A stretch of DNA of 64,000 nucleotides from Isurus oxyrinchus (lineage: Eukaryota). This document shows, one piece after another, positions 19,228 to 64,000 of this stretch. Location of the stretch: the NCBI GenBank assembly GCA_026770705.1, contig JANJGN010000036.1, positions 682,001 through 746,000 of the forward strand, written 5' to 3'. A program made the position numbers and the translations under genes. The notes under the pieces are model-generated. The model was not told the origin of the DNA. It did not search any database and saw only the letters and a list, made by a program, of their open reading frames with translations. Numbering within the stretch: the first letter of the stretch is position 1; every line of letters starts with the position of its first letter.

Positions 19228-20025
19228 ATGAGCTTCCTTAGTGTCTTTGCATCGTTCCCCCTCTTTCAGGAGGAGATATCGTGACAGGTTCTGATAGAGT
19301 GGAGAAGACTTTGGAGAGTGTAACCACTGACAGGAGGGTCAGTAACCAGAGGGACACAGATTGGCGATAATCGGCAAAAGAACCAGCAGGGGAGAAGAGG
19401 ATATTCTTTTATTAAAAGAGCGAATTATTGTGGTTTAGAAGGCGCTGCCTGAAATGGCAGTGGAAGCAGATTCAATAGGGACTTTCAAAATAGGAATTGG
19501 ATAAATTCTTGACGGGGAAAAATGCAAGGATTTGGGTGAAAGATTCGAGCAGAGATTGAGGTCTAATTGGATAGAACTTTCAAAGAGCCAGCAGAGGCAC
19601 GGCGGGTGGAATGGACTCCTCGTCTTAAAGGCGCAATTTCAGTGCAGCCTCTGCATGTTTCAGCTTCCTTGTATTGGTGTCTTTAATTGCATTCTGCCCC
19701 TTTATACAGTATAGGAGCAAGGTGTAATTCAAATAATCTTTGCAATGTATCTGTGTCCGAGTTACCAATATATTGAAGCACTTTTGAAAACCAATGATAA
19801 CTTTGTCACTCCATTTTTGTGATGGTTCAGACCAGAGGTGCCCAGGGTGTCTCTTGCACTAATTTACAAATGCATTTCTAGAGTGAATGTGTTCAGGTTA
19901 GAAATATGGTTAAGGGCTGAGAGGGCCGGTCAGTTACTGTTTGGAAATTTAGGCTGCAATTAATATGAAAACTGCAGAGTAAGTGGTTTCCGAGCCTTCA
20001 CTGGTTGTGTCCTGGGAGTGGACAT
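19228..20025 (+). pseudogene. Type A gene shell: leader exon plus 3' flank, with V/C/TM/cytoplasmic exons deleted
   Basis: ATGAGCTTCCTTAGTGTC..CTCTTTCAGG|aggagatatc at 19228-19270 matches the intact leader but has a dead donor. 19640-20025 matches the gene A 3' region 34350-34710. Confidence 0.7.
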
Positions 20026-23372: not shown

Positions 23373-26300
23373 CTCTTTCGCATCCTGTTGTGTCTCTTCG
23401 GCTCTGTCTGACGGCTGTCACATGTGCGTTAATGGCTTAAGTATGTTTTGAAACTTTATACCAGTCTAGATACGCTATAATCAATCACTGACACTGAATG
23501 ACAAATACGCTAATATTCCCCAATTGGCCGATGTTTCTCCAATATTGCATTACTTCCCCTACATGACAATGCGTGGACAATGTACACGAAGCAAACACCT
23601 CCGCCTCCCCCTCACCCGCAGTGGCCATGCCGGACACAATATTGCCAATTTTAGACTCACCTGGTGGTTCCTGCACAGAAGAAGTCAATTCAACATCTTG
23701 TGGCCAGGTTGGGTTTCTGAAAGAGGAACAAATATAGTTCACCTTCGACTCAACCCCGCCTTTTCTCCGTGGCCCTAGAAATGATTTGTCTTTCTATCTT
23801 CTAACAGTTATCAAATCTCCTCATTCCAGACAGTTCCACCACTGGCAACAGTTTCTCCCTGCCTACTGTTTCCAGACCCTTCATAATTTAGAATATCTCT
23901 ATTAAATCTCCTCTCAACTTTCGCTTCTCCCAGGGAAACAACACCAGTTTCTCCAGCCTATTGTTTTCGAACTGAATTTCCTCATTCTTGCAACCTTCTC
24001 AACAATCTTGACTGCAACCTCGCTATAGCTTTCACATCCTTCGCGAAGTCAGGTGGCCAGAATGGTACACAATGCACCAGCTGAGGCCGAACTGAATCTT
24101 TTTACGAACGTTTATTTGAACTTTGTGCCTTTGTACTCTATGTCCATATTATTAAAAGCCTGAAACCCCTACGCTTTACTAACTACTCTGTCAACGTATT
24201 CTGTCACCTTACGTGATCTGAACAGATATACAACCTGATCACTCTGTTCCTGCACCCCTTTTACAATCGTCTCCTTTGTTTTATGTTGTCTCTCCTCGTT
24301 CTTCAAAACAAAATGTGTCATTGCACACTTCTGTGCATTAAATCTAACCTGCCAGTCTATCGCTCTCCTCCTCTAGGTCACGAAATTTTCAAGGTTTGTG
24401 TCAACCGTTAATTTTGAAATTGTAGTCGTGACACTGATGTCATGGCTTTTCATAACCTCTAGGAGAAGCCTGAGTCCTAAAATCCGTGCCTTGAGGAAAT
24501 CTAGCCTATACTTTTCCTGCAGTCTCAATAGTGGGCCTCTTATATGGGAGCAACAGGCCGGAGAGTGATTTCAGAATGTGGGCAGTTGCTCACTTTTCAT
24601 TGTGGGATCTCTTGCCTCGTTCTTCTGAAAGGAGAGTCAGTAATTAGCAATTTAAAACTGTGAGAAGGGAATCACATTGGACAACCAATTATGAAAATGT
24701 CCCTGATAAACATTGATCCTCACCTGATCTGCCGCTTTTATGTGTCCAAATGAAAATGAAGATCAAGTGTAGAAATAGGATCGCCGCTACCATTCTGACA
24801 ACATTAAGGGTCGGAATGCACTATTCCCACAGAGACAAAACAATTAGAAACTGCTGCTCGATCAAATCAGAATTTCGTGGGATTCTCTCATGGGAAACGT
24901 GACCCAGTTAAAAGTTGGTGCCTCAAACAGCCTTTGCGACAGATAGCGGCTACTGGACGCACAGAATGAGATAAATTAAGCAATGTTTTCGAATTGAGAT
25001 GAATTGGCGGACAACACTGTCAGGATTGTTCCAAAAAATTATACAATCTTACCGATGTCTACCTGGAAACTGAATTATAGATTCATAGAATGAACCAGTC
25101 AACAAGGAGGCAGTTCGGTCCATCTTGTCAGTGGTAGATGTTTGTGTAAAGAAAACTCAACATGTTTCCCCCCTTGGTTCTCGCCTTTGGAAACAGTTTC
25201 TCCGTATTTGCTCTATCTAAACAATTCATGATTTCGAACCGTTAACCTTCTCTGCTCTAAGGAGAACAGCCCCAAATTGTCAAGCTTCTCCACATTAACT
25301 AAAATCCCCGATGCCAGGTCCCATTCTGGTGAATGTCCTCTGTACCCTCTCCAAGGCCCTGACATATTTCCTTAACATGGCGTCCAGAATTGGAATCAAC
25401 ACTCCGGCTGGTGTCAGACTAGGGATTGATAAATTGCTATTTTTTCTCCTATCTGATTCCTCCATTAAAAAGCCGTGGTCTCCCTCTGTCTTTTATGTGC
25501 CATCTCAACTTGTCCTGCCACGTTCAGAGATTAATATCCATCGGCCTGATGAGAGTTCAACTCGGTCAATTCCATATTAACCCAATTTCACCTTCGCTTC
25601 ACCACACGAAGCTAATGTTAAATCCGACTGCTGATTTCACCAACTAATATGACTTAAACATTAAACCGGATTTTACAAGTAAAATGGAGATTGATAAAGT
25701 AGATTCCGGGAAATGAGGAAGGTGACGGGGGTAATTGAGCGAGAACCACGTCCCTGCAGACCCGTCGCTTTTCCCAACAATCTCACCTCTTCACTGCTTT
25801 CTGCTCATGGAAACTAACGTTGAACTAATCTCAAACCTGTTCCTCATCCACTGCCTGAAAGAGTGGAGGTTACAGATTAAATAATAATTTCCCTGAGGGA
25901 AACCAGATTATTATATGAATTATGTGAACGGGAACCAGTTACAGGATTATTGGGAAAAGGTGGGATTAATTGAATATCCTCTTTCTGTGCTGTATCACTC
26001 TATGATATTAAGATGTCACGCAGGAGCTTAAAGCGAGTCGAGAACGTATTTACAAGACAAGGTCTCCCTGTCGGACAGAGGACAATTCTAATTCGTTTCA
26101 AATCATTAAATGCGCTTTTTACATAAATATTAGACACATATAAACGCATACGTACATAAGTATATATAAAAAAATATATATTTTATATAGACAGGCAAAT
26201 GCACACGCACATATATAAACACACGCGCACTCACACATTCACCGATATACACGCACACACATATCTGCACACAGGCACACGCATATGTGTGAACAGTCAT

Positions 26301-26991
26301 ACATACGCACACATGTTAACACACACACATTGAAACACACACACACGACCACAAACTCACAAATATCTTTATATGTGTCTATTGTTATCTGTTGTCCCCG
26401 GAAGTGCTTAAATGAGAGGCAGATTCTTAGAATCTAGTGAATTCCTGCAACTGATCTTATGAAGTAAAGACCTTCACTGAACAGATCACCAACTCATCTG
26501 TGCCTGTCTCTGTTCTTTGGTCCTTAAACCAATATTTGTTTGGAGACCCCAGATGAACGATACAAGTAGAGGGGCCGCCCGTTCTCTGGGTTGCAATCGG
26601 CACCATGGCGTGACTTCTGATGCTGTAGGAACCGTCCGCCTCCCTCGTACCGGGATTCTGTAAGTAGAGAGATTATAGTTACATTATCACTGGTTATTGA
26701 AGGATAGCAAGCAGCCGCCTTGAAAGACGTAGTGAGTAATTTAAGAACAGTCACATCATTATTTTTAATTATTCTTATCCCTCATTTGATTTTCTTCAGC
26801 TTATAAGAGAGACAAATAAACAAACTCATACGATCAGGTCAAATCCCTTCACCTGGTCACTGGGTAACATTTTTAGCTTAGTTAACAATGATTCTGGCGG
26901 ATCCCAGTTTACAATTCTCACCCGCCTCTTACTCACCACAAACCCGTAGCACTTGGAAAACAAGTGGCAGAGACAAAAATACCTTGGACAT
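23373..26991 (-). pseudogene. Type B receptor pseudogene with V and half of C deleted
   Basis: Intact leader MSKVFLSLPLVFQVLRVC at 26991-26937. The V acceptor (26657) is fused out of frame to the 3' half of C (DPGTREADGSYSIRSH..STCIVHLGSP). TM relic ~24826-24724 with a stop and a dead acceptor. Cytoplasmic exons 24624-24594, 23716-23661 and ~23422-23373. Confidence 0.82.
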
Positions 26992-29099
26992 CTTGACGTG
27001 GTGACTTCACTCTGTTTTCTCTCTCACCACTTTGTTACCTCAGGAGAAGTGGCCCCAGACTGACCTGAGCTCAGTCCCAGTCAGTAGCTCCACATTCAGA
27101 TCTGGTGAAAACCTGACTAGCTATGCTATTGAAAGTACTACAATATTTTGGGTGGGTGAGGCGTCCTGATGAGTACTGTGGTCACCATCTGAACATCACA
27201 GCGGTCAATTGGTAGAATGCCACTCAAGTTGTCGCCCGGGGGTGGGGGGTGGTGGAGGTGGTGGGGCCTGGGTCACAGAGTACTAATTGTATGGATGGGT
27301 TCTGAATATTGCAGTTAAGGATTACTCAATTCTGGGCACGTGAGAGCCGTTTGCAAGGGAAGCATGTATTAACCATCCCTGGTTGACTCTTGAGGTGGTG
27401 GTGGTGAGTCGGCATCTTGAACTGTTGCAGTCCATGTGGTGTAGGTACAACCACAGTGCTGTTAGTCGGGTAGTTACAGGATTTTGACCCAATGAAAGTG
27501 TAGGAATTGCGGTTCTTTTCATGCCAGGATGGTGTGTGGCTTGGCGGGCAACTTGCACTTGGTGGTATTATTGCTATCATTGTACCAGAAGTTTGTAGAG
27601 GTCGCAGATTTGGAAGGTGAACGCCAGGAATTCAGAGTGTTATGTCATTGTACTCAATATAATCAATTTTGTAAACAGTTTGTACAAAATTCATGATAAA
27701 ACCTGGTTATGTCAGAGACTGGAATATATTGGGTAAAATGTATGTGGATTAGTTTGAATTTACGAGTGTCTCATTCTCTATATTACAAATTACACAAAGA
27801 TCTGGAGTGGGATTCTAATGTAGCAAAGACGGGCCTTCACCACACTTATTGTGAATCTAAATGGATTGAGTACAGTTCCAATCCTTTCGTGCATCATCCT
27901 CCTTTCTGTCAAGTCTCATTGAGTAGGGTTTCGACTGACTTATTCTATAATATAAAATGCCGTTGGTGATTGACCTGAATTCAGTGTCCTGAGTTCATTG
28001 TATTTGCCTATGATTCATTGATTGACCCCGTGAAGAGAGTTTCAAACAATCATACATGTTCCACTTTGCTTTGTGGTCTAAGCGGGTTCACAGCAGATCA
28101 ATGGAAAATTAACTGCACATTTAATTTTCCATTGAACTTTGAAATAGCCGTTAAGCTCCTTTGATGTTACAGTTTATAGAGTTACATAGAGTTTGAAGCA
28201 CAGAAACAGGCTATTCGACCCGACTGCTCATGCTCGTGTTTATGCCCTGCATGACCCTCCTCCCATCCCTTCTTCTCAGTCCAACAGCATATCCTTACAT
28301 TCCCTTCTTCTGCATGTGTTTACAAACTTCCCACTTAAATGCAAATCTGCAAGAGCCTCATCCATTCCCTGTGGGAGTGGGTTCAACATCCTCCCCAATG
28401 CCCGAGTAAAAAAGTTTCTCCTGAATCCCAGACTGGATTTGACGAATATTAATGGCTCCACATTATAGAGGATCATAGGAACACAGGATTGGGCCATTGG
28501 ACCTTTTGAGCCTGCTACACTATTCAATAAGGTCATGGCGGATCTGGTAGTGGTCTCGACTCCACCTTCCTGTCTGCCGCCCATAGGCCTTGGCTTCCTT
28601 GACGAACAAATATCTGTCTAACACGGGGCCTTGAATACATTCAAAGACTCAGCCGGCACTACATTCCACAGACCAACTACCCATTGAGTGAAAAGAAAAT
28701 CTCGTCATCTTTGTCTTAAAATGGAGACCTTTATTTTTGAATTCTCCACGATTCTGGATTGAATTTATTGAAGGCCAATATTGTTGAAAGCGTGCAGAAG
28801 TAGAATCATCTTCCTTCAGCCTGCCAAAATAAACCATTTCACAATTTTAAAGGCCCCGACCAGGTCAACCCTGAATCTTCTCCTTTTTTCGATCAAAGAA
28901 CTCCAGCTTGTTCATTCATTCCAGCTTGTTCATTCATTCCAGATAGATATAAGCTCTCAGTTCCTTTATCATCCTTGTGAAACATTAACCGTACCTTTTC
29001 CAGTGCCTCTGTATCATGTCGAGAACATGCAGAGTTCTGTCCTGTACTCCAGCTATGGTCTAACTAACGTGAGAACATACCTGGTGTATTTTGTAAAGC

Positions 29100-29307: not shown

Positions 29308-32300
29308 ATGAGCTTCCTCGCTGTGTGTGCATTGTCCCATCTCTTCCAGGGTGAGATATCTTAACATGTTACATACAGTGGAGAACGGCAGGGATGGTGT
29401 AAATAAAAAGAAATTGTTTCAATTGGCAGGGGGCGCGGCAACCAGCGGGACACAGATTGAAGAGAACCGGCAAAAGGACCAGAGGGGGTGGGGGAGTGGG
29501 GACGAGAATAATTTTTCTTTAACCAAGAATTATTGTGATCTGGAAGGCTCTGCCTGAAAGGACGATAGAAGCACATTCAAAAGGAATTTTCAAAAGGGAA
29601 ATTGGATGGATACTTGAAAGGGAAACATTTTCAGAGATATGCAGGACGGAGCGGGGGAGGTGTTGGGGGTGGGGGTGGGGCGGTTGGTGGGGGGGCTACA
29701 GAATGGGGGATAGCTGGATAGATCTCTCCACGTGCCAGCATTCTGAAGGGCCAAAATGGCCTCCAAATGCGCTGTGCGGGACTATGAGATGCAAGTCAGT
29801 TATCAGGTTCAATATAAAAATAGAGCGAATATAATCAACAATATGGGAACTGCATCCGTCAGGAACAATGAATGAAATTAATCTGAAATGTAAACTCCCC
29901 TGAGATAAAAGATGTGAGTTGGCCCCATCTTCATTATTGGCGATTCAGAAGTGGACAGAGTTTCAGGTGGATCATTAGAGTGAGTATTGATCTCTGGAAC
30001 AAAATAAAATGCCCAAAGCTAACGGAGAAGAACAGAAAACGAAGGGAGGTGAGAGAAGAAATATAACAGTTTGAAAATTTAGATTTGAAGCAGTTCTTTT
30101 AAGTTTTGGAAAGACAGGAATAGAACGGCGCAAACAACCGATTGCGCGTGATTTATCGATATGAACTATATATTTTTTTAATGACCGTGCCTCCTCCCTA
30201 TCGGGGTGTATTCGTCGGAGGCTAGCTTCGGGAGAGAGGGTGTGCGGGTGCGGGGTGGCGGATTGCACTGTAATCTGAGGTAACTTGTTTATTTCTGTCT
30301 TGCTCAGTTATTATGTCTCAACCCGTCTTGTCTCAGTCTCCACCGGTTCAGACACTCCCTGCAGGGAGTCGTGCTAAATTGAGTTGCCTCACGGAGGGCT
30401 CAGTGGTTAGCTTCATCCTCTGGTACAGACAATCGGAGCGAAACGACATGAAGCTGATTTACATAGCGGGCCAGTACCTCCCCGCAGAGGGGAGGTTTTC
30501 CAGTGAGGCTAATTGCAAAGCGGTTAATTGTTCACTGCTCATTGCGGACACCCGGAGAGATGATTCTGGAATATATTACTGTGCAATCCGCAATTTCAAT
30601 AACATGGTCAGAATATTCGGAAATGGCTCCCAGTTAGTGATTACAGGTGAATTTTATCATTATTCCATCGAATTAGGTATTTTGACAGCAATTAAAAGTC
30701 TCTGGTTTCAGCTCATAATGATGTTTTTCCTTCATTTGCCAAATTTAGAGGGCCCCCCCACCATATCCCTCCTCGCCCCGCCAGAGGATGAGATTCCCTC
30801 CATGGAAAGGGTCCCGTTGTTATGTTTGATAAGAGGCTTGTCCCCCGATTCCTTAACAGTCCACTGGGATATTTCCGCGCGGGATGCGGATAGACAGACC
30901 GATTCCGGGACAATTGAGTCGGACGGGACCTACACCATCAGGAGTTACACCAGCCTCTCGGCGGAAACATGGAGCAGCGGCGCTCTCTGTACTTGCGCCG
31001 TTCAAATCAACTCCAGTGAAAATCTTCTCAGTGCAAGTGTCTCATCTCAGAGAGGTAGCTATTAACAGTGACCGTTTACCAATCTATTTAATGCTGATGG
31101 GAGACTTTGTCAACTTTGTAAATTAGAATTGTCCATCTTTCCGTGTGTGTCCATGTAACATCATTTTATCATTGACCTATCACAGGTCTCTCCGTCTTTC
31201 AGAGTTTAGCTTTCTGAAATTCTAACTCCTTCCGTTCTCTCTACCTCAGAGGGCTACGGATGCTCTGTCGCTGAGGTAGATTTTTGTGCATTAAGTGAAT
31301 AAGGGACGTGGACAGGCCAGGAAATTGCATTTAATCTGCAGGATTAACAGTGGTCTTATTGAATGGCGGATCTCCTTGAGGGGCAGAATGGTCTCCTGCT
31401 CCTATTTCCTGTGTTCTTGTGTCTATCTAAGCATATTGACATGGTTCCATGCCACTGGATCATTTGTCAGTGAGCAAAATTGAAAAGTGTGATTACATTC
31501 CCAGTGCACCACTTTGTCTCACCATGCCTGTGTAAAATTATCTATTCATATCTCTAACTACTTAACATTCACAATATTTCTGTCTGTCTTAGTTAAATAT
31601 TGGGATGTAAAATATCTTCTCTATCCGTGTGTCTATCTGTTTATCTATCTATTCATCTTTCTTGCTCTCTATCAAACATCCATTCTTATCCTCGTACAGG
31701 TTAAGATAACTGCTTTATCTATTTTTATGTTTAACTCTCTCTCTCTCTCTGAAACCTTCTCACTACCGCTCCCCCTCTCTGAATCTCCAGGTCCCACCAC
31801 TGTTTGCCTCATCACTCTCTCCCTCTTATTCTGTCATTATCTATTGATAAATGTATTCATCTCTCTATCTATATCACTCTACCTCTGTTTATCTTGTCTA
31901 TTTCTATAGTAGTTAAATGGTGCCTTATAAGAAATCTGGGACATTCATCTATCTTCCCATCTGTCGATCTCTCTCCATCTCTCACCCTCTTTCTCTCTTT
32001 CTCTCTCTGTCTCTATCGCTCTCTCTCTCTATCCCTTCCCATCCATTTAAAAAATTCTGTCTATGTTTTATGCTCTGTCATACTCTCTTCATCTCTCTAT
32101 CTGTAACTATCCAGCTCTCCATCCATTTCTCTATCCAGCTCTCCGTCCATCTCTCTGCTCTGCTTCTCCCCCTCTCCAAATCTCTCTCACTCCGTCGCCC
32201 CATCTCCCATTTCTTCCTTTCTCCCCCTCTCTCTCCATCCCTCCCCTCCCTCTTTCCCTCTCTCCCCATCTCTCCCTTACCCCAATTCCCCCTCTGTCGA

Positions 32301-34140
32301 ACTCTCCCTCTCTCCCCTATCCCCCATCCCTTCCCCCCTTTCCATTTTCCCTCTCTCTCTCGCTCCCTCTGTGACCATCTCTCCCTCTCCACCTCTCTCC
32401 CCAACTCTCCTCCGCTCTCCCATCTCCTTTCTCCCTCTCACTCCCCCATTTCTCCCTATCTCCACATATCTCCTCTCTCCGTCGCTACCCCTCTCCCCTG
32501 TTTCCCCTTATCTTCAAACCTCCCTCCCCCTTCAACTATTTCCCTTTGTATTTCTATCTTAGTTAAACAGAGAGTGATCTTCTCTCTCGACCACTCTCTG
32601 TCCATTTCTCCCCGGCTTAACATTTATTTGCTATTAAAACAGTGCTCTATCTATCTCTTTCGTTATCTCTCTATGTTTGTCCTATTTAAATAGTGTTCCA
32701 TAAGATCGCTGCTCTCTCTCTCTCTCTCGCTTTCTCTCTCTATATTTCAGCCTTTATAAATGGGCGTCTATCTATCTCTTTATCACTCGCTCCCAGTGTC
32801 CGATTCAAATAGCGTTTTTAACGATCTCTTCTCATTCTCCCTATCTCTCTCTCTTTCTGTATACAGATATCTACCCTGTTCAAATAGTGCTTTATAAGAT
32901 CTCTGCTGTCCCTTGCCACTCGTCTCTCCATCTCTGTCTCTATCTCTTCTCTCTCATTCTACATATTTCTACTTCTGTCCTGTTTTAATATTCTTCTGTT
33001 ACGTCTCTTTATTTCCGGATAATGAAAGCAGTAAAAATCTATTTCCGTCTGCAGGTGAAATCAGGCATCTAATTTGCGACCTTTTCCCCCACTTGTTTAT
33101 TTAATTCCACAAACTTTCTTTTAAATGAAAGTTTTTTTTGCAGATTCTCCGCTCCCGACAACCTGCAGTTTCCTGTTTTCAGGGAGTTTGACGGCGGCAG
33201 CTCTTCTCCTTCTGGGGATGATTCTTGTGGTCGGGAGAAGGAGCTGCCGGAACCAGCAGACAGGTAGCGATTTTTGGGAGACGCTGAAACTCCGTGGCGC
33301 TCTCAATCAATTCAGTTATGAATAAATTATTGACAGTTTCAGCCGGTTCAGAGTGAAATGTAGCCACTTACGCTCAGTTCAAATTTTACTTTCTAACAGG
33401 AAAAATGAACAGTGGTGAGGAAATGAAAGATTGCAGAGAACAACGAGAGAATAAAGAGGTAAAAGAATGCAATTGTTGCCACAAGCCTGGAAACATTTCA
33501 CGAAATTTTAATCCAAGGTTCACATTTCATAGTTATTGCGATTAATCTAAAGAAATTTAGGTCATGAGTAATACAGGATGGCAGAAACTAGGCTTCAATT
33601 CCTCTCATTAGGAAGATTAAGGGTTGATTTAATCCAAGGGTTTAAGATGATAAAAGGATACGATCGTGTCTGAAGAGATAGACTCTTTGCTCTGGTGGCA
33701 CAGATGTGGAGTTGCGGTGCGGGATGAGTAGTGGGGGTTGGAGGGCTGGAGTCCAGAACAAGGGGGCACGACCTTAAAATTAGCGGTAGATCATTCGGGG
33801 GTGATGTCAGGAAGCACTTAGTCACACAAAGGCGAGTGGAAATCTAAAGCTCTCTCCCCTCAAAAGCTGTTGAGGCTGCGGGATCAATTGGAAGTGTCAA
33901 AACATGGATTGACAGATTTTTGTTTGGGAAAGGGGGTTAAGGATTATTGAACCAAGTTGGGTGGATGGACATGATGATACAGACCAGCCAAGCTCTAATT
34001 AAATAGATTGGAGGGGCTGAATGGCCTCCTGCTATCCCAATGATGATGGTTTTCGTTATATTAATGGATTCGGTTTTTATTTTTTTTCTCCACAGACGCT
34101 TTATGCCCGCTTGGCCTTCAATGAAGATGCCAAACTTTGA
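29308..34140 (+). CDS. Type A non-rearranging VJ-C1-TM receptor (TCR/IgL-like IgSF), intact, 6 coding exons, 303 aa
   Basis: Exons 29308-29350 (leader MSFLAVCALSHLFQ, donor gtgaga), 30308-30646 (V with fused J: LSC..WYRQ..DSGIYYC..FGNGSQLVIT), 30749-31054 (C1: LLCLIRG..HW..DGTYTIRS..W..CTC), 33144-33263 (DSPLPTTC + hydrophobic TM + RRSCR), 33400-33458 and 34096-34140 (TLYARLAFNEDAKL*). All introns are GT-AG with compatible phases (1,1,1,1,0). The total is 912 nt with no internal stop. Confidence 0.88.
30308..30646 (+). CDS. Type A VJ exon (V-set Ig domain with germline-joined J motif)
   Basis: Canonical Cys, WYRQ, DSGIYYC and FGNGSQLVIT lie in one exon. No heptamer/nonamer between YYC and FGxG. 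Confidence 0.93.
30749..31054 (+). CDS. Type A C1-set constant domain exon
   Basis: PTISLLAPP, LLCLIRGLSP, VHW, DGTYTIRSY, TWSSGALCTC. Flanked by tttag| and |gtagct. Confidence 0.92.
31700..32960. repeat. CT-rich low-complexity tract in the gene A C-TM intron
   Basis: Polypyrimidine, (CT)n-rich sequence. Confidence 0.9.
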
Positions 34141-40627: not shown

Positions 40628-43600
40628 ATGTGCTTCTTAATGTACTGTGCGTTGCTGCGTCTGTTTCTGGGTTTGAGCCTTCTTCACTCCTCATTCAGGA
40701 TGGTTTAAGATATATTCAGCTAAGTGGAAAATAATCCCCATGTCTACATTCTATAATATTACCTTCATGTTGAAGGACTGAATTATGCCCACCTGATCAA
40801 AATTGATCACATATCAACATTCTGCAAACTATCTGATAAGACGTTCAAAAGAGATTCTATCTGCGTCTTTCAGTTGCAAAGGATCCCAGGGCTACGATTA
40901 GCAGAGGAACGAAGGGGTTGGGGGACGGGGGTGTGGAGTTCTCCCCGTTGTCCCTGGGGACAATATTTATCCCCCAGCTGCGTCATTAAAAGCACGACCT
41001 GGGTCATAGTCACTTGTTCCTTGTGGATCTTGCTGTGCGCCATTACGGCTGCCACGTTTGCAACGTCACAACAGAGACTGCATCTTGAAAAGAAGTCCTT
41101 CATTGTCTCTGATGCGCCTCTTCTTCCCTCTTGCTCGTGTTATTGTATTGGAGCGTTGGACTCCATTAACATGCTTTAACCAGTTGGTGGTCTATTTACG
41201 TTTTACTGTTGTAGCCGATTCTCCTGAGCGAACATTTTCTCCCTCCCTGCCACAGCAGAATCCATAGACTTGATTATGTATCTCTCATTTATTGTATCTC
41301 AGGCAGTTTTGTCCCAGATTCCAGAGGTTCAGAGTCTCTCGCTTGCAAGTAAAACAAGCTGCATTGTGACACGGCTTAATTGGCGGTGGTGGGGAGGGAG
41401 AGGTGGACTGGTATAAACCGAACCAGCGGAAGCTTGTTTACACCGTGACAGAATAAAAATCTGCAACCGGGTGATATCCAGGAGAAGTTTACGAGAATCC
41501 ACTCTGTATTCCCTGAATATTGCGGGTGTGGAGGCCAGTGATTCTGGCATGTATTATTGTGCAGCTAAGAAGTTCAGTAGGATGCCCTTTACGTTTGGAA
41601 ATGCTTCAAAATTGTTTATCACTGGTCCAAATCACGATTTTCCTACAATTCCATTATCAATGATCAGGAAATTATGGCCAATAGGTATCGAATCTCAAAG
41701 CGCGATCCCATCACATTGTCCAATAATCGACCATGGAACTCCGCCTCCACCTGAAATTCTCTCGATGGGAGGGGAACTTTCGGTGTCTTTGGGGAAGTGT
41801 CTGGACCCCGATTCCTTTGCCACCCACTTGGAAAGTTTCTGGAGGGGGTGCCCAGGGACAGAGCGATTCCAGGATAATCGAGCCGGACGGGACCTACCCC
41901 ATCGGGAGTAACATAATCCTCTGGGCGTAAACTTGGAGCAGCAGTGACCTCTGTCCTTGCGCGGCTCAATTAAATGCCAGTGAAAATCTTCCAAGTGAAA
42001 GTGTCCCATCTCAGGGAGTTAACTGTTAACAGTTTGCTCGTGCATTTAATGTGCGGCCTATTATTTTGTCATATCTCTTTGTACATCTGAACTTCCCCCT
42101 TCAATGTGTTCACATATCATTTTCAGACACCTTACCAGGTTCTCCTGCATCTCAGAATTTCAGTGTTTACCTTTCTGAATTCTTAATCCATCTGTCTAGT
42201 TGGGATAAAATCCCAATTTTCTGTTTACCACTTTCCCTGTTTTTCCTCTGTGACATTATCTGTATCCCATAGGGCAAAGCTTCCAGCACCTAGACAGTGC
42301 ATTCTGCCCTTTGGCTCGGGGCTGGTGTTTCTACTCCAGATGAACCTCATCCCACCCCTCTTTACTTCAGCCCATCACCATGTCCTTCTGCTGGTTTCTC
42401 CCTCATGTGTTTATACAGGGTCAAATATCAATCCATATCTGCAATTCACCTCAACCGCTGCCTTTGGGAACGTGCTCCACATTCTGTCTGCTTCCTGATT
42501 AACGCGTTTCCTCCTAAATTCTCGATTCGATTTATTAGTGACTGTTTGATATTGATGGTTTCTAGTTCTGGTCTCCCTCAGAAAGTGCCAATACGTTATC
42601 TACTCCTGCCCTAAAGTCATTTTCATCATCTTAAAGATATTGATCAGGTTACCCGACAGACTCCTCTTCTCTCGAAAAAAAGATGACAGCCTGTTCAAAC
42701 TTTCCTGATTGTCAAAACCTTTCATTTCTGGTAACATTCCAGTACACCCCGCCTTTTTGCTCTGTCCCCTGTGCCTGCATATTCTTTTTATGATATGCAG
42801 CCCAGGATAATTCGCAGCACTCCATGTGCGGTCTAGTTAAGTTCTGATACACTTTAATGCTGCCTTTCTTCTTTTCATTGCTGGGCCAGGCTGTTATCAT
42901 CTTATTAACCTCTGATTTTTGTGTTGTCCCTCAGAATCCTCTGCTTTTCTGTTCTATTCAATCGGTTATTTTCCACTGATTGCATAGCCCAAACGTTGTC
43001 ACTAGGTCTAACCCGGTTCCCAACCATTCTTCTTCCTAGCTAAACGGTCACTATATAACGTTTCATCCAAGACAAAGGAATGAAATCCGCTGGATGACCA
43101 TAAGCTGGTTAGTCTTTCATGTGTGGAGAACAAACGCTTAGAGTTAATTGCTATACATGAAATTGATGAGCATTTCATAAAAGATGGGTTCGTTAAGGGC
43201 ATTCAGCACCGACTTGTTAAAGTGTAGCTTAACACATTTAATAGAGATTGCCCTATCAAGAATTATCCGAGTGGACAGTTAAATAGAATGCAGTTCATGG
43301 GGTTCCACGAGGTCTTCACGTGTTTGTGCTTTATAAATTTATCTATGTATCCCTCACTCGCACCGGGTCNNNNNNNNNNNNNNNNNNNNNNNNNNNNNNN
43401 NNNNNNNNNNNNNNNNNNNNNNNNNNNNNNNNNNNNNNNNNNNNNNNNNNNNNNNNNNNNNNNNNNNNNNNNNNNNNNNNNNNNNNNNNNNNNNNNNNNN
43501 NNNNNNNNNNNNNNNNNNNNNNNNNNNNNNNNNNNNNNNNNNNNNNNNNNNNNNNNNNNNNNNNNNNNNNNNNNNNNNNNNNNNNNNNNNNNNNNNNNNN

Positions 43601-44659
43601 NNNNNNNNNNNNNNNNNNNNNNNNNNNNNNNNNNNNNNNNNNNNNNNNNNNNNNNNNNNNNNNNNNNNNCTATCATTCTCTCACACGCTGCCTATGTGAC
43701 TGTCTCCCTCTATCTAGCCATCCATATAGCTTCAAATTTGTAAATTTTCTTCACTTGCCTAATAAGTATCGATTTTTAAAAAAAATGTGCTTGATGAAGT
43801 TGGGGACAGTGTCAATACTGACATTGTTTGCCCTTCCCGAGCCGCCATGCTTAGGTGGTGCTGGATCTCCTTGAACGTTATGCAAGAGCCAAACGGCTCG
43901 GGTTGCAGTATTTTTCTGAAATACAATGAGATTCTTCAATTCTTGCTCCCTACCACTTGCAGTTTCCATTTTCAGGGATTTCGTCCAAACGGGGTTCTCC
44001 TTCAGGGGATGGTTCTTGTGCCCGGGAGAAGGGGTTTCTGGAGCCGGCAGTCAGGGAGAGATTATAGGGAGAAGCTGTAACTCCACGGCGCTCTCAATGC
44101 ATCCATTAATCACTGGGTTTTGGCAGTTTCAGCTGTTTGAATGTGAACTGAAGTCATTTCAACTAAGTTTAAATTTCAGTATCTAGCAGCATGAACAATG
44201 ATGCGGAACTGACACATTATAGAGCAACAACACAAGAAAATGCGGTTACTATGGATGAATTGTTTCCTAACATGTGCAGATACATTTAACCTAAGGTTAA
44301 AATTCATAGTTAATGACATATGAGTCTAGGAGATTTTGCATAGTGCATATTGCAGGAGAACACTGTTTACACGTGATACAACATTGTGAAGATAGATAAG
44401 AAATATAGATAGGTGTTCAACTGAATATGTCAAAATTGAGATTGATAAGTTTTTGTTGGGTAAAGGGCCTTTACTGTTATGTAACGAAGGAGGGGAGAAG
44501 GGGTTAATTTACATATCAGAAAATACATTATTGAAAGGCAGAACATGCTCGACGGGCTGAATGGACTCCTGATAATGATAAGCTCACGATAACCGTTTGT
44601 GTTTCCTCTTACAAACTATTTTTGCTCAGTTGGCATTTAATGCGGATCCCACAGTCTGA
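40628..44659 (+). pseudogene. Type A VJ-C1 receptor pseudogene (all exons recognisable)
   Basis: Leader MCFLMYCALLRLFL at 40628-40670. V relic ~41290-41625 (DSGMYYCAAKKFSRMPFTFGNASKLFIT) with a lost acceptor, frameshifts and stops. C relic ~41740-42020 (EPDGTYPI..WA*). TM relic ~43940-44055, cytoplasmic relic ~44188-44245, last exon TIFAQLAFNADPTV* ~44615-44659. Confidence 0.85.
43370..43669. other. Assembly gap
   Basis: N run. Confidence 1.
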
Positions 44660-48425: not shown

Positions 48426-51400
48426 TCATCTGCCGTCCCCCTTCTTTTTTGACCTTTTCTCCAATGCAGCCAAGTCCAGTGAAGCGTAGAGAGGTCCACT
48501 TTGAGTCTGGGAGATATTTTAAACATCAACAGCTAAAAGTAGCTTAAATATAGGTAAGATTGCCCTCTCCCGCAACTGTGTTTCATAGAATCATTGACTG
48601 ACACAGCACAGAAGGAAGTAATTCCACCCATTGTGTCTGTGTATGAAAGAGCTACGCAATTAGTCCCATTGTACCCTCCTCTGTCCCCATATCGCTGTCA
48701 TTATTTTCACCTTCCACAATTTTGTAATTCCTTTTTGAAAGTTGCTACTGAATCGGATCCCACTGCACTTTATCCCAATTTGAGGAAAGTTTTGCTCCAT
48801 TTATATGTACAAGAATCATCTGAATTGATGTTTTCTAATAGAGCTGCAGAATTCGCAAAGAGACTAGAAATAACCAAAGTTTAATCAGAAAACTGGGGTG
48901 ATGAATCTACCAATTTGATTGAATTCCTTTGTTGTTAATTGGCCAACCCGATGACTGTGTTTCACCATGTGCCACCTGCACAATTGAGTAGAGTCCACTA
49001 AACTGATGACATTTAGAAGAATGACACAAACACGATCAAAAGGCTAGTGTTTATATAGCGCCTTTCACGAACTGAAGAAGCCACAGCATATTTAGATCCA
49101 CTCCTTTGAAGTATAGGCTCTGTTCTTCATGCAACGTGGCAGTGAATTTACGCACAGTAAGATCCCATACACAGCAATGAATTAATGACCTAGATAATTT
49201 ATTTTTAAGGTGCAGGTTGAGAGATAAATTATGAAACGGGAAAATAGAGAGAACCCCCAACTCACCGCAGCCCCCATCCCCCAACACCCCACCACTGCTC
49301 ATCTTGCAATAATGGTGGTACCAACTTTGACGCCAACCAGAGAGGTCTAACAGGTCCTCGGCTTAACAATTCATTTGAGTTCGGCACCTCGGACAGTGCA
49401 GCACTCGCTCTGGAGGTTCAGTTTAGACATTCTGCCCAAGTGTCTGGACACACACACACGCACATACACACACACACACACACTTGCACATAAACATGCA
49501 CACACACACACACACACACATGTACACACGCATATACAAACACATGTAAACACAGATGCACGCACATGGTCTTTCGCCCCAATCTGACCCCTTCGCAGTC
49601 CACTTACAACAGAAGCAGATTTAGATTTATCTATAAAAACTTGCATACGTTTGGTCTGACCTTCATTCTAATTCCATTTGCTAATGTGTTTACTAAATTG
49701 GTTGGGTCGGAGGAGGGGCAAAGTTGTTAAACGAGGGAAGGGGATTAGACTCACTGTAGAGATAAAAGAAAATAGCACAAATCTAAAATATGAACTGCTG
49801 GCAATACGCTGTTAAATCTGACGGAGACATTCCACCTGGAAAATGGCCCTATCCTTTCTGTTGTCAGATGGGGAATATTTTCTGATTCCAGTTCGAGGGA
49901 CGAGTGGGATTATATACAAATTCAGATGCTCTAGACTATGACCTGCCCTGTGATAAACGCGTGGAATAACTAGCATGGGAAGCCCTGCACCTTATCCCAA
50001 AAACCTTTTTGTATGTTATTACAATAATTTCTAAACAACTCACCTGTACTGCATCCCGATGTGTCCGCTTTCCATCTCTTTGACGGCGGTCATCTGTGTT
50101 ATTAATGGTTGAGATAGCAATTCAAATGTTATCCCAGTCTGGCTCATTCATAATGATTACAGATACGTCATTCGCCAATGATACGCCAATGCACCAATGG
50201 CTCCAGTAAGCCCATTTGTGACGAGGCCCCCAGTCCATAGAATGTCTCCCAACACTAGAAAGTTCCCACAAAACTTCACTGGAGTGAAAATCGCCAATAG
50301 ATGGACAAGCACTCTCCATCCACAGTGTGTGGCGTCTATTCTCCTTCTGGTATACTACTGCAACTATTGATAACCAGGAAGTGGCATTTTTTATGGGAAC
50401 CAGAGTCAGCAGAGTGATTGAAAACATTATTGATGGTGGGAAATGTTTTTATGTATATATCCAATTCCAAGGACTTGACATTTAATCTGTGCCAAAATTT
50501 CAATGCAACTTACCCGTTTGTCGCTCATTCTTCCCCTCTCTTTGCCTTCTCTCTCTCAAGCTGACCCTGGATGCGAACAGAATTATCAAACACGTGTTAT
50601 ATTTTATGAATACTGATGGAGCTGCCAGAAATAGGTGAGAAGAGAATGTCGAGTGGTCTTAGAATCTATCTTAAATGTTCATGGTAAGTGGCAGCATATA
50701 TCATTGGAATCAATGTTGTGGTTGAACTGAGCTAGGTCCAGTGTTAAATATGAAGCGTGGGTTCGGGATGAAGTTTTCAAATGGTTCAGTTACTCACGTT
50801 TCATTGTGGGACCTCTTGCTTGGTTCTCCTGAAAGCAGAAAGTAAATTATCAATTTAAAAGTAGGAGAAGGGAATCATTTGAGACAATCAATTATTAAAA
50901 TATCACTGATAAATATTAATCCTCACCTGATCTGCTGCTTTTATGAATCCAAATGGAAATAAAGACCAAGAGTAGAACCAATATCACCAGGACAGTTATG
51001 ATAACAGGAAGGGCCAGCATGCACCATCCTACAGAGACAAAACACTTAGAAACTGCCACTCCATCAAATCAACCTTTTCTGGTACTCTCTGATGGGAAAC
51101 GTGCTCCAAAATTAAGCCCAGAAGCAGTCCATTTGGATCATCGTGCCAGTGCAGGCTTTTTGACAGCGGTAACTAATTAATCATATTCTCCCTGCCCTAT
51201 CCCCCATACTATTGAAAGTGTCTTTCCATCAGGTATTTATCGAAGACTTTCATGATTTTGAACGCCTCGATTAAGTCTCCCCCTCAACCCATTCTGCTCT
51301 ATAGAGAACATTACCAGATTCTACAGTCTCTCCACATTTACTGAAGTTCCTCATCCCTGGTCCCATTCTGGTAAATCTTCTGTACCCTGCCCAAAGCATT

Positions 51401-52958
51401 CTTGCCTGTTTTCTGCTTATAAAGTGCATCAAGTGTGGAACTGACCTCAATTTAATTCCAACATCCACTGCCTAATCAGGGGGGCGGATGTAGATTCAAC
51501 ATTAACTTTCGGAAGAGTAATCAGATTCTAACTTGAAGAGGAAAATGTGGAAGTGTTGTGGGGAAAGGGGGATCCAATGGGATAACGCTTACAAAGAGAT
51601 AGCACAGGCACGATGGGCCGAAATCGCTCTTTCCGCATCTATCGTTCTAGAATTCGACGATGTCTTGGAGAAATATAAGCCAAGTCCAGAAATTGTTTAC
51701 AAGGGCACGTCTACACCTGAGGCTAAGGCAACCCTAACTTATTTTTTAAATCATATTTAGAATATACATATTTATAGTTTGCTTTACAGCTGCAGGTTCC
51801 AACAATAAATTAATTTCTCCAATTGACTCTAAAGTTGCGTAAAAGCCTCCATTGAGCAGATCGCCTACTCACCTCCCCCTGACTCTGCTGCTTTCGAGAA
51901 CGGCAAACTCTTTGTCCAATATTTGCCTGGAGACCCCAGTTGAACAACACAAGTACAGACACCGCCGCTTCTCCAGGTTTCCCTCGATACTATGACGTGA
52001 CTTCTGACACTGTAAGTCCCATCCGCCTCCTTCATACCGGGATCGCTAGGCCCCTCAGTGACCAGGTCGGAAATATTCCAGAAAATAACAACCTGGTTGG
52101 AAGAAACTCCACTGACCAAACACACTAAGGGGACGGTTTCCCTCAAATGCAGCTCACCCGGCGGGACAAACACCAGCACAGCCGTCTTGTTGGTGGAACT
52201 GTCTGGACAGAGATTGGGACTCAGTTAACGATGCATTAGCCCCAAATGATAATGCATGATCTGAATTAATTTCACTTGCTCTCTTACCTCCAACCAGTAG
52301 TGTTGATCCATTGTGGAGCGGAGCATTGCTACTCCTATGAGAACTGTAATAAGAACCCCAGTCATTTTTCTGGACATTGCGAATTTCCAGAATCAATTGA
52401 TGTTTGTTTTTGCCTTCTTTGGAAATAAACTTACAATTGCCCCACTGACAGGAGTGAGTGTCTATTAGTATCGGGGCTTCACCCACACGTTGTTTGTACC
52501 AGAAATAGAGAGACACCGATTTCACTTCGTAAAAGTAGTGCGAGGTTAATTCCACCGTCTTTCCGACTTCAGCTGTCATTATGAAGGGGCCCGGAGCCAG
52601 AGAGAGCTCGGATTCTGTAACAAGATAGATTATTGTTACATCACTATCGCTTATTGGGAGATTTTAAGCAGCCGCTATGAAAGACTTCGCCTGTAATATT
52701 AAAATAGTCACATCATTGCCTGTAATTATAGGTGTTTAGATTAATTTTGCAATTTGAATCCTTCGCTTTCTCGGAGGAACGACTAAATAAAAACACAGGA
52801 TCAGGTCAAATCGCTGCACCTGGCCACTAGGTCATATTTTCTGCTTAGTAAACACTGATTCTGGCTGATTTCACTTTAAAATTCTCACTCTCCTCTTACT
52901 CACCATAAAGCCGCAGCATTTGAAAAATGAATATCAGAGATAAAGATCCCTTCGACAT
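48426..52958 (-). CDS. Type B non-rearranging VJ-C1-TM receptor, intact ORF, 8 coding exons, 342 aa
   Basis: Exons (minus strand): 52958-52904 (leader MSKGSLSLIFIFQMLRLY, gtgagt), 52614-52288 (V, WYKQ, ending NGSTLLVG, gtaaga), 52202-51873 (C1: LVCLVSG..FW..DGTYSVRS..W..CTC), 51028-50927 (GWC + TM MLALPVIITVLVILVLLLVFISIWI), 50828-50798, 50566-50514, 50093-50044 and 48506-48426 (TQSGPLYASLDLAALEKRSKKKGDGR*). All introns are GT-AG with compatible phases. The total is 1029 nt. The distal cytoplasmic exons are less certain than L/V/C/TM. Confidence 0.82.
51873..52202 (-). CDS. Type B C1-set constant domain exon
   Basis: ORF 51865..52179: VPLVCLVSG..IFWNIS..DGTYSVRSH..TWRSGGVCTCVVQ. Acceptor gtccag, donor gtgagt. 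Confidence 0.92.
52288..52614 (-). CDS. Type B VJ exon (atypical V domain with Cys->Ser at both canonical positions)
   Basis: VELTSHY..FWYKQRVGEAP..LEIRNVQKNDWGSYYSS..HNGSTLLVG. Acceptor ttacag, donor gtaaga. Confidence 0.88.
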
Positions 52959-54829: not shown

Positions 54830-55565
54830 TCTCAAATGTAAAAACAGGAAAATCACCGAGAGCTTCTGGATCGAACATCGTTTTCCATCTCAAGCGAAAA
54901 GCGGCCAGAAACTCGGCCAGCGGTTTACGCCAATCGATGTACTTTTCACAGCCTCGGAATGGATTGTGAGACTGTAAACAGCCGCGGTCACAGCCAATGC
55001 GCCTCTTTGCTGTCCAGCCCCGCTCTCTGCTGCAAGGTCCACTGACTCTCTTCTTTGCTATTCAAGATCAAGCATTTTCGCAGAACAGTTTAGACATTCA
55101 GTAAGGAGCAACGCTCATTCCAGAACCCATTCTAAAAGTTATTCATTCTACCAGTTTAGTTACATTAAGATGAAAGTTTATCCCTCCTCACACAGTCAGC
55201 ATTCTATTGAAAATTCCTTGGCATGGGTTCCTGTGAAGTCTTGGAGAGAATTTGCAGCACAGATTTCCTTCTTTTACTTTATAAATGGCTCGAGCTTGCC
55301 ATGAGGGAGTCCCATAAAATAATCATTTGACCCAGCAGTATTTATTAAGTAATTTGTCTTCGTTGGCGTGGTGCATTTTGACCCTTTACAACAACTGTCA
55401 CCATTATCCAGGGTCTACTCTTCATCCTCATTCGTATTTGGATTCACTAAAGTGGCTGATCTGGTAAGTATTAATGTTTAACAGGGCCTGATTAATAAAC
55501 GTTTGTTAATATGCTCGCTTTTAAATACTAATTTCAGCTTCTTTTTTCAGAAAACCGAATGAATA
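54830..55565 (+). pseudogene. Relic: type A promoter/leader followed by a type B-like TM exon, both on the + strand
   Basis: aaaacaggaaaatcaccgagagct resembles the gene A promoter. gtcacagccaATGCGCCTCTTTGCTGTC at 54997 resembles the A leader. 55350-55565 aligns by eye with the B TM exon, its intron and the next acceptor (tggtgcatt..tctactctt..atttggattcactaaagtggctgatctg|gtaagt). Confidence 0.55.
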
Positions 55566-56934
55566 TATCCCAAAAGGAAAATTGTCTACCATTTTGTAAA
55601 ATTCATCACTTACAATCTCGCTGTATTCATCACTGTATCTAACCAGTTCAACCGAAACGTGCATTCCAATTGTACAGATATTTTATTATTTTCCAAGTTC
55701 TTTTCAGATTGACTCTGAGACCCATAAACGTTTCCAATCTAAATATTTATATCAAGTGACCAATGACTAAAACATCATCAGCAAAATGAGCGAAGTAGGC
55801 CATCGATCCTGCTCCACCATTGAAGAAGATCTTGGCTAATCTGGTTGTAGCCACAAGTGCAGTTTCCTGCACATAACTCAAGACTTCCTTGTCAATCAAA
55901 AATCAGCCCAAATCAGACTTAAACATACTGAATGGCGAAGCCTCCAGTGCTCTCTGGGGAAGGGAATTCCAAAAAATCTAACGACCAACTGAGAAAAGAA
56001 GTTCCTCCGCATCTCCATCTTAAAAGGGAAATCACATGATGTGAAACAGTGCCCCTACATTCCTCCACGAGTCGAAGCACCCTTTCAGCAGCTACCCAGT
56101 GAAACCCCCTCAGTATCTTATATGGTTCAATAAGTTCACCTCATTCTTATATTTACAACCAAAAGTGCATGTTTGATATTTTTTGTCTGTATGTAGTTTG
56201 AGTTTGTAAGAAATATTTCTCCAGGTATTAGAGGGCATTAGGAGTCTATAATGATCACCTTCATTTGCATCCCAAGAGCTACTACCCCTCTAACTGGAAC
56301 CTCATTGTCACCAACAAAAGAAGCATTCGTTAAGGCTTAGGAGGTAATGTCTTCGTCAGATTCTTTTTGCCAAGAATGGATTTTGCTCTATTGAAAAAGC
56401 CGCCAATAAGAATGCGGGAGAGAATGGATAACTCAAATGGATTCTAGCAACTTTCCAAAGAGACCCACTGATGTCGAAAGCACTAATTTAACTTTCAGTG
56501 TGAGGCATTGGGCACTATCAACCAGCAACTAAACAATCTTATACTAGAGTGGTTAAGAGAGTTAAAGTTACTTTGGGTGGAGACAGATACAATTCCCTCA
56601 TGAGTGTTGAGTGTGTCTGTGTGTGTATGTGTGTGTCTGGGGTGGGGTGTGTAGGAGGCGTGGAGTCCAGACCAAGAGGTCATTGCCTTCAAATTATAAC
56701 CAGGCCACCCAGGGGTGATGTCCAGAAACAATCTGTCCCCCCAAGAAATGGCGGATGGGGCATTTAGTTGCAGTGCGTTACTGAAAACATGATGCGCTGT
56801 AAGGTCTCAGGCACGTGATGACCTCTGTAACTGTTGGGTAATAGATGATTAACACAGATTATGTTAAGAAATCTCACCCTCCACAGGCCCCTTCACCTTG
56901 AGATCTGTCAGTCTACTGTATACTATCGTAATCA

Positions 56935-62510: not shown

Positions 62511-63466
62511 ACTCATGGATTTTCTTTTTTGTCCTGGGGGTGTTTTATTCGGAGACGGCAGTTTGTTCGGAACTAGTGAATTACTCCAACTGATTCTTTG
62601 AATCCATTGAACACAAACAGCAATCTGATCGGATAAATTCCACTAACCAAACACACTCACTCAAATGCAGCTCACTCAACAGGGCAAAAGCCAGCAAACC
62701 GTCTTGTTGGTGAAACTGTCCGGAGAGAGATTGGGACAGAGATACCGATTAATTTGCACCAAATGATAATGATGTGCACGATCTGAATTAATGTCACGTG
62801 CTCTATTAGCCTCAACCAATAGTGTGGGTCCATTCTGGAGCGGTACAACCTTATCAGCACAGTATTAGGAACCCGAGTCATGCACCTGGACTTTGCGAAT
62901 TTCCAGTATCAATTGATGTTTGCTGTTGCCTTTTTTGGAAATAAACTTACAATCGGCCCACTAACAGGGTCGGATATCGATTAGTATCTGGCCTTCACCC
63001 ACAGGTATTTTGACCAGAAATTGCAAGACACTAATCCTTCTTCATAAATGTAGTGACAGGTTATTGGAACCGTCTGGCCGACTTCAGCTGCAAAACTGAA
63101 GGGGCTCTGAGGCAGAGAGTGCTCGGATTCTGCAACCAGACTGATTATTGTTACATTGCCATTGAGAGACAGGAAGCAGCCGCTTTGAAGCACGTGGCCT
63201 GTAATTTAAGAAAGTCACGTCATTGCCTTTAATTATTCTTGGTTAGATTAATTTTCCAATTTGCGTTTTCTTCACTTTACAGAAGGAACCAGTAAATAAA
63301 CTCACATTATCAGATTAAGTTCCTTTCCCTAATCGCTGGGTCAAATTTTGAGCTGGATAAACACTTTTTCTGACTTATTCCTGTTTAAAATTCTCATCCG
63401 CCTCTTACTCATCATAAACCCACAGGACTTGGAAAATGAGCATCAGAGATAATGATTCCTCAGCAT
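62510..63466 (-). pseudogene. Type B receptor pseudogene (leader, V, partial C)
   Basis: Frameshifted leader 63466-63413 with donor atgagt. V exon 63129-~62810 (ESEHSLPQSPFSFAAEVGQTVPITCHY..DSGS*YCA..PLQNGPTLLV) with stops. Degenerate C exon from ~62720. Confidence 0.85.
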
Positions 63467-64000
63467 CTTGACGAGGTGAGATTTCAAATTGTTACTGCAG
63501 GCGCAGTGATCACTGACTGATCTGAGCTCAGACCCAATGAGCTACTTCACTTTCTGATGTTGCGGAAACTGCGATGAGCTTTGTTATTGAAAGTATGACA
63601 CCATATTAGGTGCGGCTCCTTGTGAATGCCACGTGCATCTGACTTACTGTGAGCCACAGCGGTCAAATGGCAGAATGCTTATAAAGAGCTTCATTGCATT
63701 GTCATTCAGAGAGGTGGTAACAGAAAACTACCTGTATGGGTAGATGTTCAATATTGCAGTTAAAGATTGATTCATTCTCGGGGTAAGCCTCACTTGGAAG
63801 GCCAGAATCTCTTAACCATCTAGAATTGCCTATTGAGAAGGTGGTGGTGAGCTGCCTTCTTAAAGTACTGCCGTCCATGTGGTGTAGGAACACCAAAGTG
63901 CTGTTAGGGAGAGAGTTCCAGGATTTTGACCAAGTGCCAGTTAATGAACTGTGGTTCATTCCAAGTCTGGATGGCGTGTGACTTGGAGGGGAGCTTGCAC

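Follow-up and report, generated by a model that had tools for sequence, protein, structure and literature searches.

Can an immunoglobulin V domain which has lost both cysteines of its core disulfide still belong to a working receptor? Few features of the Ig fold are as conserved as the bond between the B and F strands. The question is raised by gene B, which runs on the minus strand from 52958 to 48426 in the 64,000 nucleotides of Isurus oxyrinchus DNA that we analysed (the window). An earlier note, made from the sequence, had described an intact gene with serine at both positions, and had read the paired changes as a tolerated or compensated loss rather than random decay.

The coding sequence of gene B and its two serines

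Gene B has eight exons encoding 342 codons and a stop, with GT..AG at all seven introns, and the earlier description of an intact frame with intact splice sites therefore stands. Its product carries, in this order, a leader, a joined VJ domain, a C1-set domain, a stalk cysteine, an uncharged transmembrane segment and a tail with a YxxL motif. Candidate last exons near 49.9, 49.75 or 49.0 kb were dropped in favour of a conserved exon at 48506. The features are as follows.

52904..52958, minus strand: gene B exon 1, leader (ATG at 52958); an equal 55-nt exon occurs in 10 of 10 modelled paralogs
52288..52614, minus strand: gene B exon 2, joined VJ domain, 327 nt, 108 aa, bounded by AG/GT, phase 1-1
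52541..52543, minus strand: B-strand Cys24 to Ser, codon TCG; TCT (Ser) in the sister genes L002 and L003
52433..52450, minus strand: CxxxxC pair, Cys55 and Cys60 (TGT at 52450-52448 and 52435-52433), family-wide
52358..52360, minus strand: Ser85 to Trp (DWG), codon TGG; within the double-serine clade, on the gene B branch only
52343..52345, minus strand: F-strand Cys90 to Ser, codon AGT; identical AGT in L002 and L003
51873..52202, minus strand: gene B exon 3, C1-set domain (Pfam C1-set, E 1e-9)
50927..51028, minus strand: gene B exon 4, stalk Cys240 and uncharged transmembrane segment
50798..50828, minus strand: gene B exon 5, cytoplasmic
50514..50566, minus strand: gene B exon 6, cytoplasmic
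50044..50093, minus strand: gene B exon 7, cytoplasmic
48426..48506, minus strand: gene B exon 8, 26 aa, ITIM-like YxxL (48494-48477) and stop; exon seen in 7 of 10 paralog stretches, the other three being unmapped
62615..63480, minus strand: B-type pseudogene with a leader, a frameshifted V with both canonical cysteines and a C1 fragment

Where a V-set domain has its B- and F-strand cysteines, gene B has serine at both, TCG at 52543-52541 and AGT at 52345-52343, exactly as had been reported. The rest of the V-set core, namely the C-strand Trp38 and the F-strand tyrosine corner D84-x-G86-x-Y88, is intact. Pfam scores the domain as V-set with an E-value of 9e-5 and 23 bits, under the cut-off of 26, against 42.5 for the Cys-intact paralog L004. 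The C1 domain keeps both canonical cysteines and carries an additional one, Cys210, which together with Cys240 is a candidate unpaired cysteine. An ITIM in a cytoplasmic tail has the consensus (S/I/V/L)xYxx(I/V/L); the residue at -2 in the gene B tail is proline, outside this consensus, and the transmembrane segment is without charged residue. In the 63-kb pseudogene both canonical codons are TGT and both CxxxxC cysteines are present, again in agreement with the earlier note.

The two serines differ in their support from reads. Contigs of 219 nt spanning 52275-52493, assembled from X1 and X3 (short-read runs of one organism A sample, from which the assembly itself may derive), show 0 differences at the F-strand serine, DWG and the CxxxxC pair. 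Hence, these are no assembly errors. Contigs of organism B (X9 and X14, from two studies, at about 97% identity) have no difference listed at the F-strand codon or at DWG; seven V differences between organism B and gene B could be placed, four of them nonsynonymous and three silent. The B-strand codon falls in a coverage hole of X3 (52509-52541) and lies 26-28 nt from the end of the X9 contig, where differences may go unlisted. A check of the bases in reads, proposed together with the original claim, thus succeeds for the F-strand serine in the contigs of X1, X3, X9 and X14, while the B-strand serine lies outside short-read contig coverage and rests on the assembly and on the TCT of both sister paralogs.

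Inheritance of the loss within a gene cluster

Gene B is a member of a cluster, C36:586000-4102000 (about 3.5 Mb), which holds at least 50 B-type and at least 40 A-type non-rearranging VJ-C1-TM genes, both types with a tyrosine motif in the tail. We searched the genome twice for B-type genes, 40 of the 85-88 candidates being scored each time, and all the matches listed sit on C36, in the interval from 0.59 to 4.10 Mb. In the A-type search 40 of 55 candidates were scored and 30 examined; most A genes among those listed stand head-to-head with a B gene, 4-20 kb off. No description of the cluster was found in the open-access literature; supplements or subscription papers may contain one. As many copies are nearly identical, some B-type copies may be assembly duplicates. 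The V exon of the 63-kb pseudogene (62820-63135) is 100% identical to a copy 104 kb off, at C36:848619-848934, and several other genes have identical or near-identical copies at the same distance; this periodicity of about 104 kb reflects either a recent duplication or an assembly duplicate.

We aligned 50 B-type V exons, 32 open and 18 broken. The residues at the B-strand and F-strand positions of the 32 V-intact paralogs are Cys/Cys in 25, Tyr/Cys in three, Ser/Cys in two and Ser/Ser in two. The double-serine genes are gene B itself (L001), L002 and L003, and they form one clade, L001+(L002,L003), with support 100/100. L002 is intact as gene B is, with 342 codons and GT..AG at 7 of 7 introns; L003 is stopped, by a stop in V accompanied by a 6-nt deletion. 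Since three paralogs share the double serine in one clade, the loss was inherited and is not private to gene B. On the tree the B-strand cysteine changes five times (four times among V-intact genes) and the F-strand cysteine once, which makes a stepwise loss likely. A single origin for all B-strand serines was rejected (p-AU 0.002). The B-strand cysteine is not an extreme case, four other conserved positions changing equally often and one more often, yet in this family it is by no means invariant. The double loss in the clade of gene B is more than chance; it occurs in two of the 32 V-intact paralogs and in none of the 45 database relatives that cover V.

Other arrangements of cysteines were met in the cluster. 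L018-L020 and L048 are open-frame genes with a single loss, the B-strand cysteine being replaced by Tyr or Ser; L046, the sister of L018 at a distance of about 2%, keeps it. The V exons of L006, L032, L035 and L038 have a B-strand serine with a cysteine two residues later, possibly a shift in the register of the bond, and several Cys-intact paralogs carry cysteines at both places.

The surroundings of the gene have also changed. Directly upstream of gene B there is no intact A gene, and upstream of L002 there is a V-less A remnant. Of the upstream region seen in one ordinary head-to-head pair, the double-serine clade retains no more than about 220-260 bp. Hence, the promoter may be altered. 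An inverted fragment of a B-type transmembrane exon lies just upstream of gene B (55330-55670) and another upstream of L002.

The closest named relatives of gene B all come from sharks, Cetorhinus and Carcharodon being the nearest, and relatives in other sharks carry database labels such as "kappa light chain-like", light chain-like or uncharacterized. We examined 46 database proteins, isoforms and three distant hits included, of which 45 cover the V domain. These have the F-strand cysteine in 45 of 45 cases, the B-strand cysteine in 44 and the CxxxxC pair in register in 38. Among the 45, four Cetorhinus B proteins included, there is no double-serine protein; as the queries were the V exon of L002, the paralog profile and P0005, a double-serine ortholog of gene B could have escaped. 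The search for the double substitution in orthologs, which the earlier note had suggested, therefore found the F-strand serine in the organism B contigs and the double serine in none of these relatives. In Scyliorhinus, P0183 has independently changed its B-strand cysteine to Tyr, and P0177 and P0182 have lost both CxxxxC cysteines while keeping the canonical pair.

These counts bear on the stronger form of the earlier reading, according to which the CxxxxC pair and the DWG change specifically compensated the loss. Cys55 and Cys60 are kept in 32 of 32 V-intact B-type paralogs, without any change on the tree among V-intact genes, and hence seem to matter more than the B-strand cysteine; moreover P0177 and P0182 lost them jointly, as a bonded pair would. 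From their spacing, their constancy and this joint loss they are likely to form a loop bond. However, the pair is ancestral, since 38 of the 45 database relatives have it as well, and nearly all its carriers, in the cluster and in the databases, are Cys-canonical. Besides, such a bond would, to judge by the sequence, close a short loop and leave the two sheets unjoined. A feature which predates the loss does not support compensation, and the CxxxxC pair is at most a permissive background. As to DWG, it is absent from L002 and L003, which keep DSG or ESG, and it is found in the Cys-intact pseudogene L059 and in P0029; it was therefore dropped as a compensating change. We regard specific compensation as quite improbable.

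Selection and fold after the loss

Gene B and L002 differ by 59 N and 37 S differences, which gives a dN/dS of 0.45 (Fisher p=3e-4); a value near 1 had been named beforehand as the mark of a young pseudogene. Their introns differ by 0.124 substitutions per site and by 15 frameshifting indels in 3281 sites. Neutral decay at these rates predicts 12.5 disabling hits where none is seen (P=4e-6, or 4e-5 with the indel rate halved), although gene conversion between paralogs could depress exon divergence; for the V exon alone the prediction is 3.6, again against none (P=0.03). An internal control for neutral decay is provided by the A-type pseudogene of the same block, broken in all three copies. This indicates, at the level of sequence, that gene B and L002 have been under purifying selection since the loss of the cysteines.

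Gene B might be a young or silenced pseudogene whose frame is open by luck, or else an assembly artefact, as the stop in its sister L003, the 18 broken V exons out of 50, the rearranged upstream region and the position of the B-strand codon outside read coverage could suggest. Such luck would have had to hold while the introns of gene B and L002 diverged by 12%, neither gene losing its frame or a splice site (P about 4e-6), and while the A-type pseudogene of the block decayed in each copy; and an artefact would not account for the F-strand serine in independent contigs of organism B. We hold this explanation to be very improbable. Gene B may have been silenced very recently.

The selection is not evenly distributed: the dN/dS between gene B and L002 is 0.34 outside V and 0.80 in the V exon, the latter no different from neutral (p=0.52). 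This opens the way to another explanation, in which the C1 domain, the transmembrane segment and the tail would still be selected, as a scaffold, a decoy or a signalling chain, while the V domain, relaxed, would be unfolded or skipped and would have lost its cysteines in the process. The V exon, being of phase 1-1, can be skipped in frame. However, pairs of Cys-intact paralogs give V-exon values of 0.89-0.97, so that this ratio alone cannot separate the readings, and the V frame is open in both gene B and L002, with the small probability given above if it were neutral.

We therefore considered the 43 V positions which are conserved in 34 proteins of other sharks. Gene B has changes at three of them and L002 at two; the range is 0-9 among 16 Cys-intact paralogs and 5-16 among 10 pseudogenes. 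When gene B is compared directly with L002, five changes fall at these positions where 11.1 are expected (p=0.035). On the stem of the clade, where we counted the changes common to gene B and L002 against the consensus of the 16 paralogs, there is none besides the two cysteines, for 5.9 expected (p=0.003). These counts indicate that the conserved V positions stay constrained after the loss. Two of the three changes private to gene B are absent from the organism B copy and are thus recent; a recent relaxation of the V domain could have left such changes at conserved sites. On balance we find a relaxed V domain unlikely.

A model of the gene B V domain obtained by AlphaFold2 with a 45-row alignment is a V sandwich, A'/B/C/C'/D/E/F/G, with pLDDT 86.5 and pTM 0.80; it replaced one made with 11 rows (pLDDT 58.7). 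Ser24 lies in the B strand, Ser90 in the F strand, and Cys55 and Cys60 in the less certain C'-D loop. The hits listed by Foldseek are V domains of antibody light chains and of TCRs, at a TM of about 0.7. Run with an alignment, AlphaFold2 does not respond to two point changes, hence the model is silent on stability.

In our opinion the best explanation, and a probable one, is that the intact gene B makes a functional inhibitory receptor, with a V domain predicted to fold in the absence of its core disulfide. What is observed here is the open frame, both substitutions, their inheritance by a clade of three genes and purifying selection since. The B-strand cysteine, dispensable in this family, would have been lost first, as in four other lineages; the orphaned F-strand cysteine would then have become serine, ridding the V core of a free buried thiol. 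The fold would be held by the conserved core of Trp38 and Tyr88 together with the family-wide Cys55-Cys60 loop bond, older than the loss. Binding of a ligand at the V domain would recruit an SH2 phosphatase; the inhibitory sense of the signal is suggested by the uncharged transmembrane segment and the YxxL of the tail. Several facts count against this explanation: one clade member of three, L003, is already a pseudogene, the V-exon dN/dS of 0.80 does not depart from neutrality, gene B has its private changes at conserved positions and a shortened upstream region, and none of the 45 database relatives has the double serine. In short, the part of the earlier reading which spoke of tolerance under selection holds, given the intact L002, the dN/dS of 0.45 and the F-strand serine of organism B, while compensation by the CxxxxC pair does not.

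Gene A, the duplicated block and known receptors

Gene B lies in a block together with another intact gene, gene A, placed tail-to-tail with it 22 kb apart, and this block is present three times.

29308..34140, plus strand: gene A, intact, 304 codons, leader-VJ(FGNG)-C1-TM-tail with a TxYxxL motif (Pfam V-set and C1-set)
30514..30531, plus strand: additional CxxxxC in the D-E region of the gene A V domain, confined to the A clade co-duplicated with the double-serine B genes
24724..27010, minus strand: B-type remnant with its V deleted, facing gene A head-to-head
41300..44055, plus strand: A-type pseudogene, located between gene A and gene B and disrupted in each of the three block copies

In blocks 1 and 2 genes A and B are both intact, and in block 3 both have a stop. 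The sequences thus indicate that gene A was duplicated together with gene B and that the two are retained or disabled jointly. Across blocks the branching of the A genes matches that of the B genes, as expected from linkage alone. Among 30 A genes the D-E CxxxxC is found only in those of the double-serine blocks, complete in two, the third (L066) having a stop at the first cysteine. It is also present in the Cetorhinus protein P0164, whose A domain is 87% identical to that of gene A; as L065 reaches only 83%, this suggests that the block is older than the Cetorhinus split. The gene A chain is a likely candidate partner of gene B, through C1 or stalk cysteines. A complex prediction of the two V domains without alignments gave a median of 0.32 for a mark of 0.34, the controls giving 0.00-0.08. 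In two other A-type V exons (L085:1501-1836 and L089:1501-1836) the B-strand position is serine, the F-strand cysteine is kept and a cysteine has been gained in strand A, possibly a shifted disulfide.

PRARP, described in a study of 2019, is reportedly a pair of non-rearranging joined-VJ genes with C1, transmembrane segment and a tyrosine motif in the tail. It reportedly has the canonical J motif FGxG, is expressed at the surface and forms disulfide-linked dimers. Genes A and B likewise have a single exon for V and J, and after it a C1-set exon, a transmembrane segment and a tyrosine motif; unlike the single PRARP pair, they belong to a family of at least 50 B and at least 40 A copies over about 3.5 Mb, and the J motif, FGNG in gene A, is absent from the VJ exon of gene B and from its paralogs. 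By analogy, gene B may work like the PRARP-type non-rearranging VJ-C1 pairs. No sequence named PRARP was among the relatives retrieved, and the likeness is one of described features. PMC11599192 counts PRARP among the joined-VJ IgSF genes, and PMC10751288 puts it with the VJ genes in the MHC. None of 33 MHC class I matches is on C36 and 31 are on C21, in a comparison confined to class I genes and to unjoined contigs.

UrIg and UrIg2 are shark non-rearranging VJ-C1 genes (PMC12227049, PMC10751288), and they share with gene B the shark origin, the unsplit VJ exon and the C1-type constant domain. The same papers describe non-canonical disulfides in UrIg2 V domains, as possibly here, with additional cysteines which join the G strands between chains. 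UrIg2 is described there as linked to IgH/TCR, with V followed by three C domains and an IgG-Fc-like part. In gene B, unlike UrIg2, one C1 domain is followed by the transmembrane segment and the YxxL tail. Neither the best 60 sequence hits nor the fold hits listed included a UrIg chain. Both an assignment of gene B to UrIg/UrIg2 (single C1 then TM, no Fc-like part) and one to the rearranging Ig/TCR chains were rejected; the latter have V and J as separate segments and lack an ITIM-type tail, whereas the unsplit VJ exon of gene B is joined by splicing to C1, TM and a YxxL tail.

NITR has a V and an I domain, SIRP is V-C1-C1, and CD8 and NKp30 have no C1. In contrast, the shark family is V-C1 in head-to-head A/B pairs; it resembles these receptors by its germline VJ domain and its clusters of inhibitory-type receptors. 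The nearest Atlas clusters are unnamed V+C1 ones, followed by SIRP-like clusters. CEACAM N domains are Ig V domains without the B-F disulfide. PMC12051499 gives CD2 as another such case, PMC5734687 the antibody ABPC48, whose VH misses one cysteine, and an evolved disulfide-free scFv derived from it, and PMC11599192 counts NITR, SIRP, CD8 and NKp30 among the joined-VJ receptors. V domains without the core disulfide are thus already known, and gene B adds a further case. The V fold of gene B is predicted to tolerate the absence of the bond as do those of CD2, ABPC48 and CEACAM; unlike in these, the loss can be traced in one family, with 25 Cys/Cys, five single-loss and two double-loss genes of 32. 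The cluster is a natural series (both cysteines, one, none) in genes 60-80% identical, in which the cost of losing the bond and the factors which permit it can be tested, and which bears on disulfide-free antibody domains.

In a wider picture, which we offer tentatively and with more doubt than confidence, the cluster would encode germline TCR-like A/B heterodimeric inhibitory receptors, and in one block both genes would have exchanged their lost head-to-head partners for a new co-evolved pair, B dropping its core V disulfide and A gaining the D-E cysteine pair. If true, the new pair would preserve the traces of a natural rewiring of disulfides, in a living relative of the pre-RAG antigen receptor. 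Non-rearranging VJ-C1 genes are of the kind sought as relatives of the precursor of antigen receptors, according to PMC12227049. The leads most worth following are the cluster of paired genes and the linked gain of cysteines in chain A.

Finally, we must note two minor elements of the window. A lone A-type leader exon lies at 19218-19280 on the plus strand, with no V exon found behind it, and a single-exon gene broken by stops and frameshifts lies at 12900-13900, also on the plus strand, and reads like a seven-transmembrane receptor.
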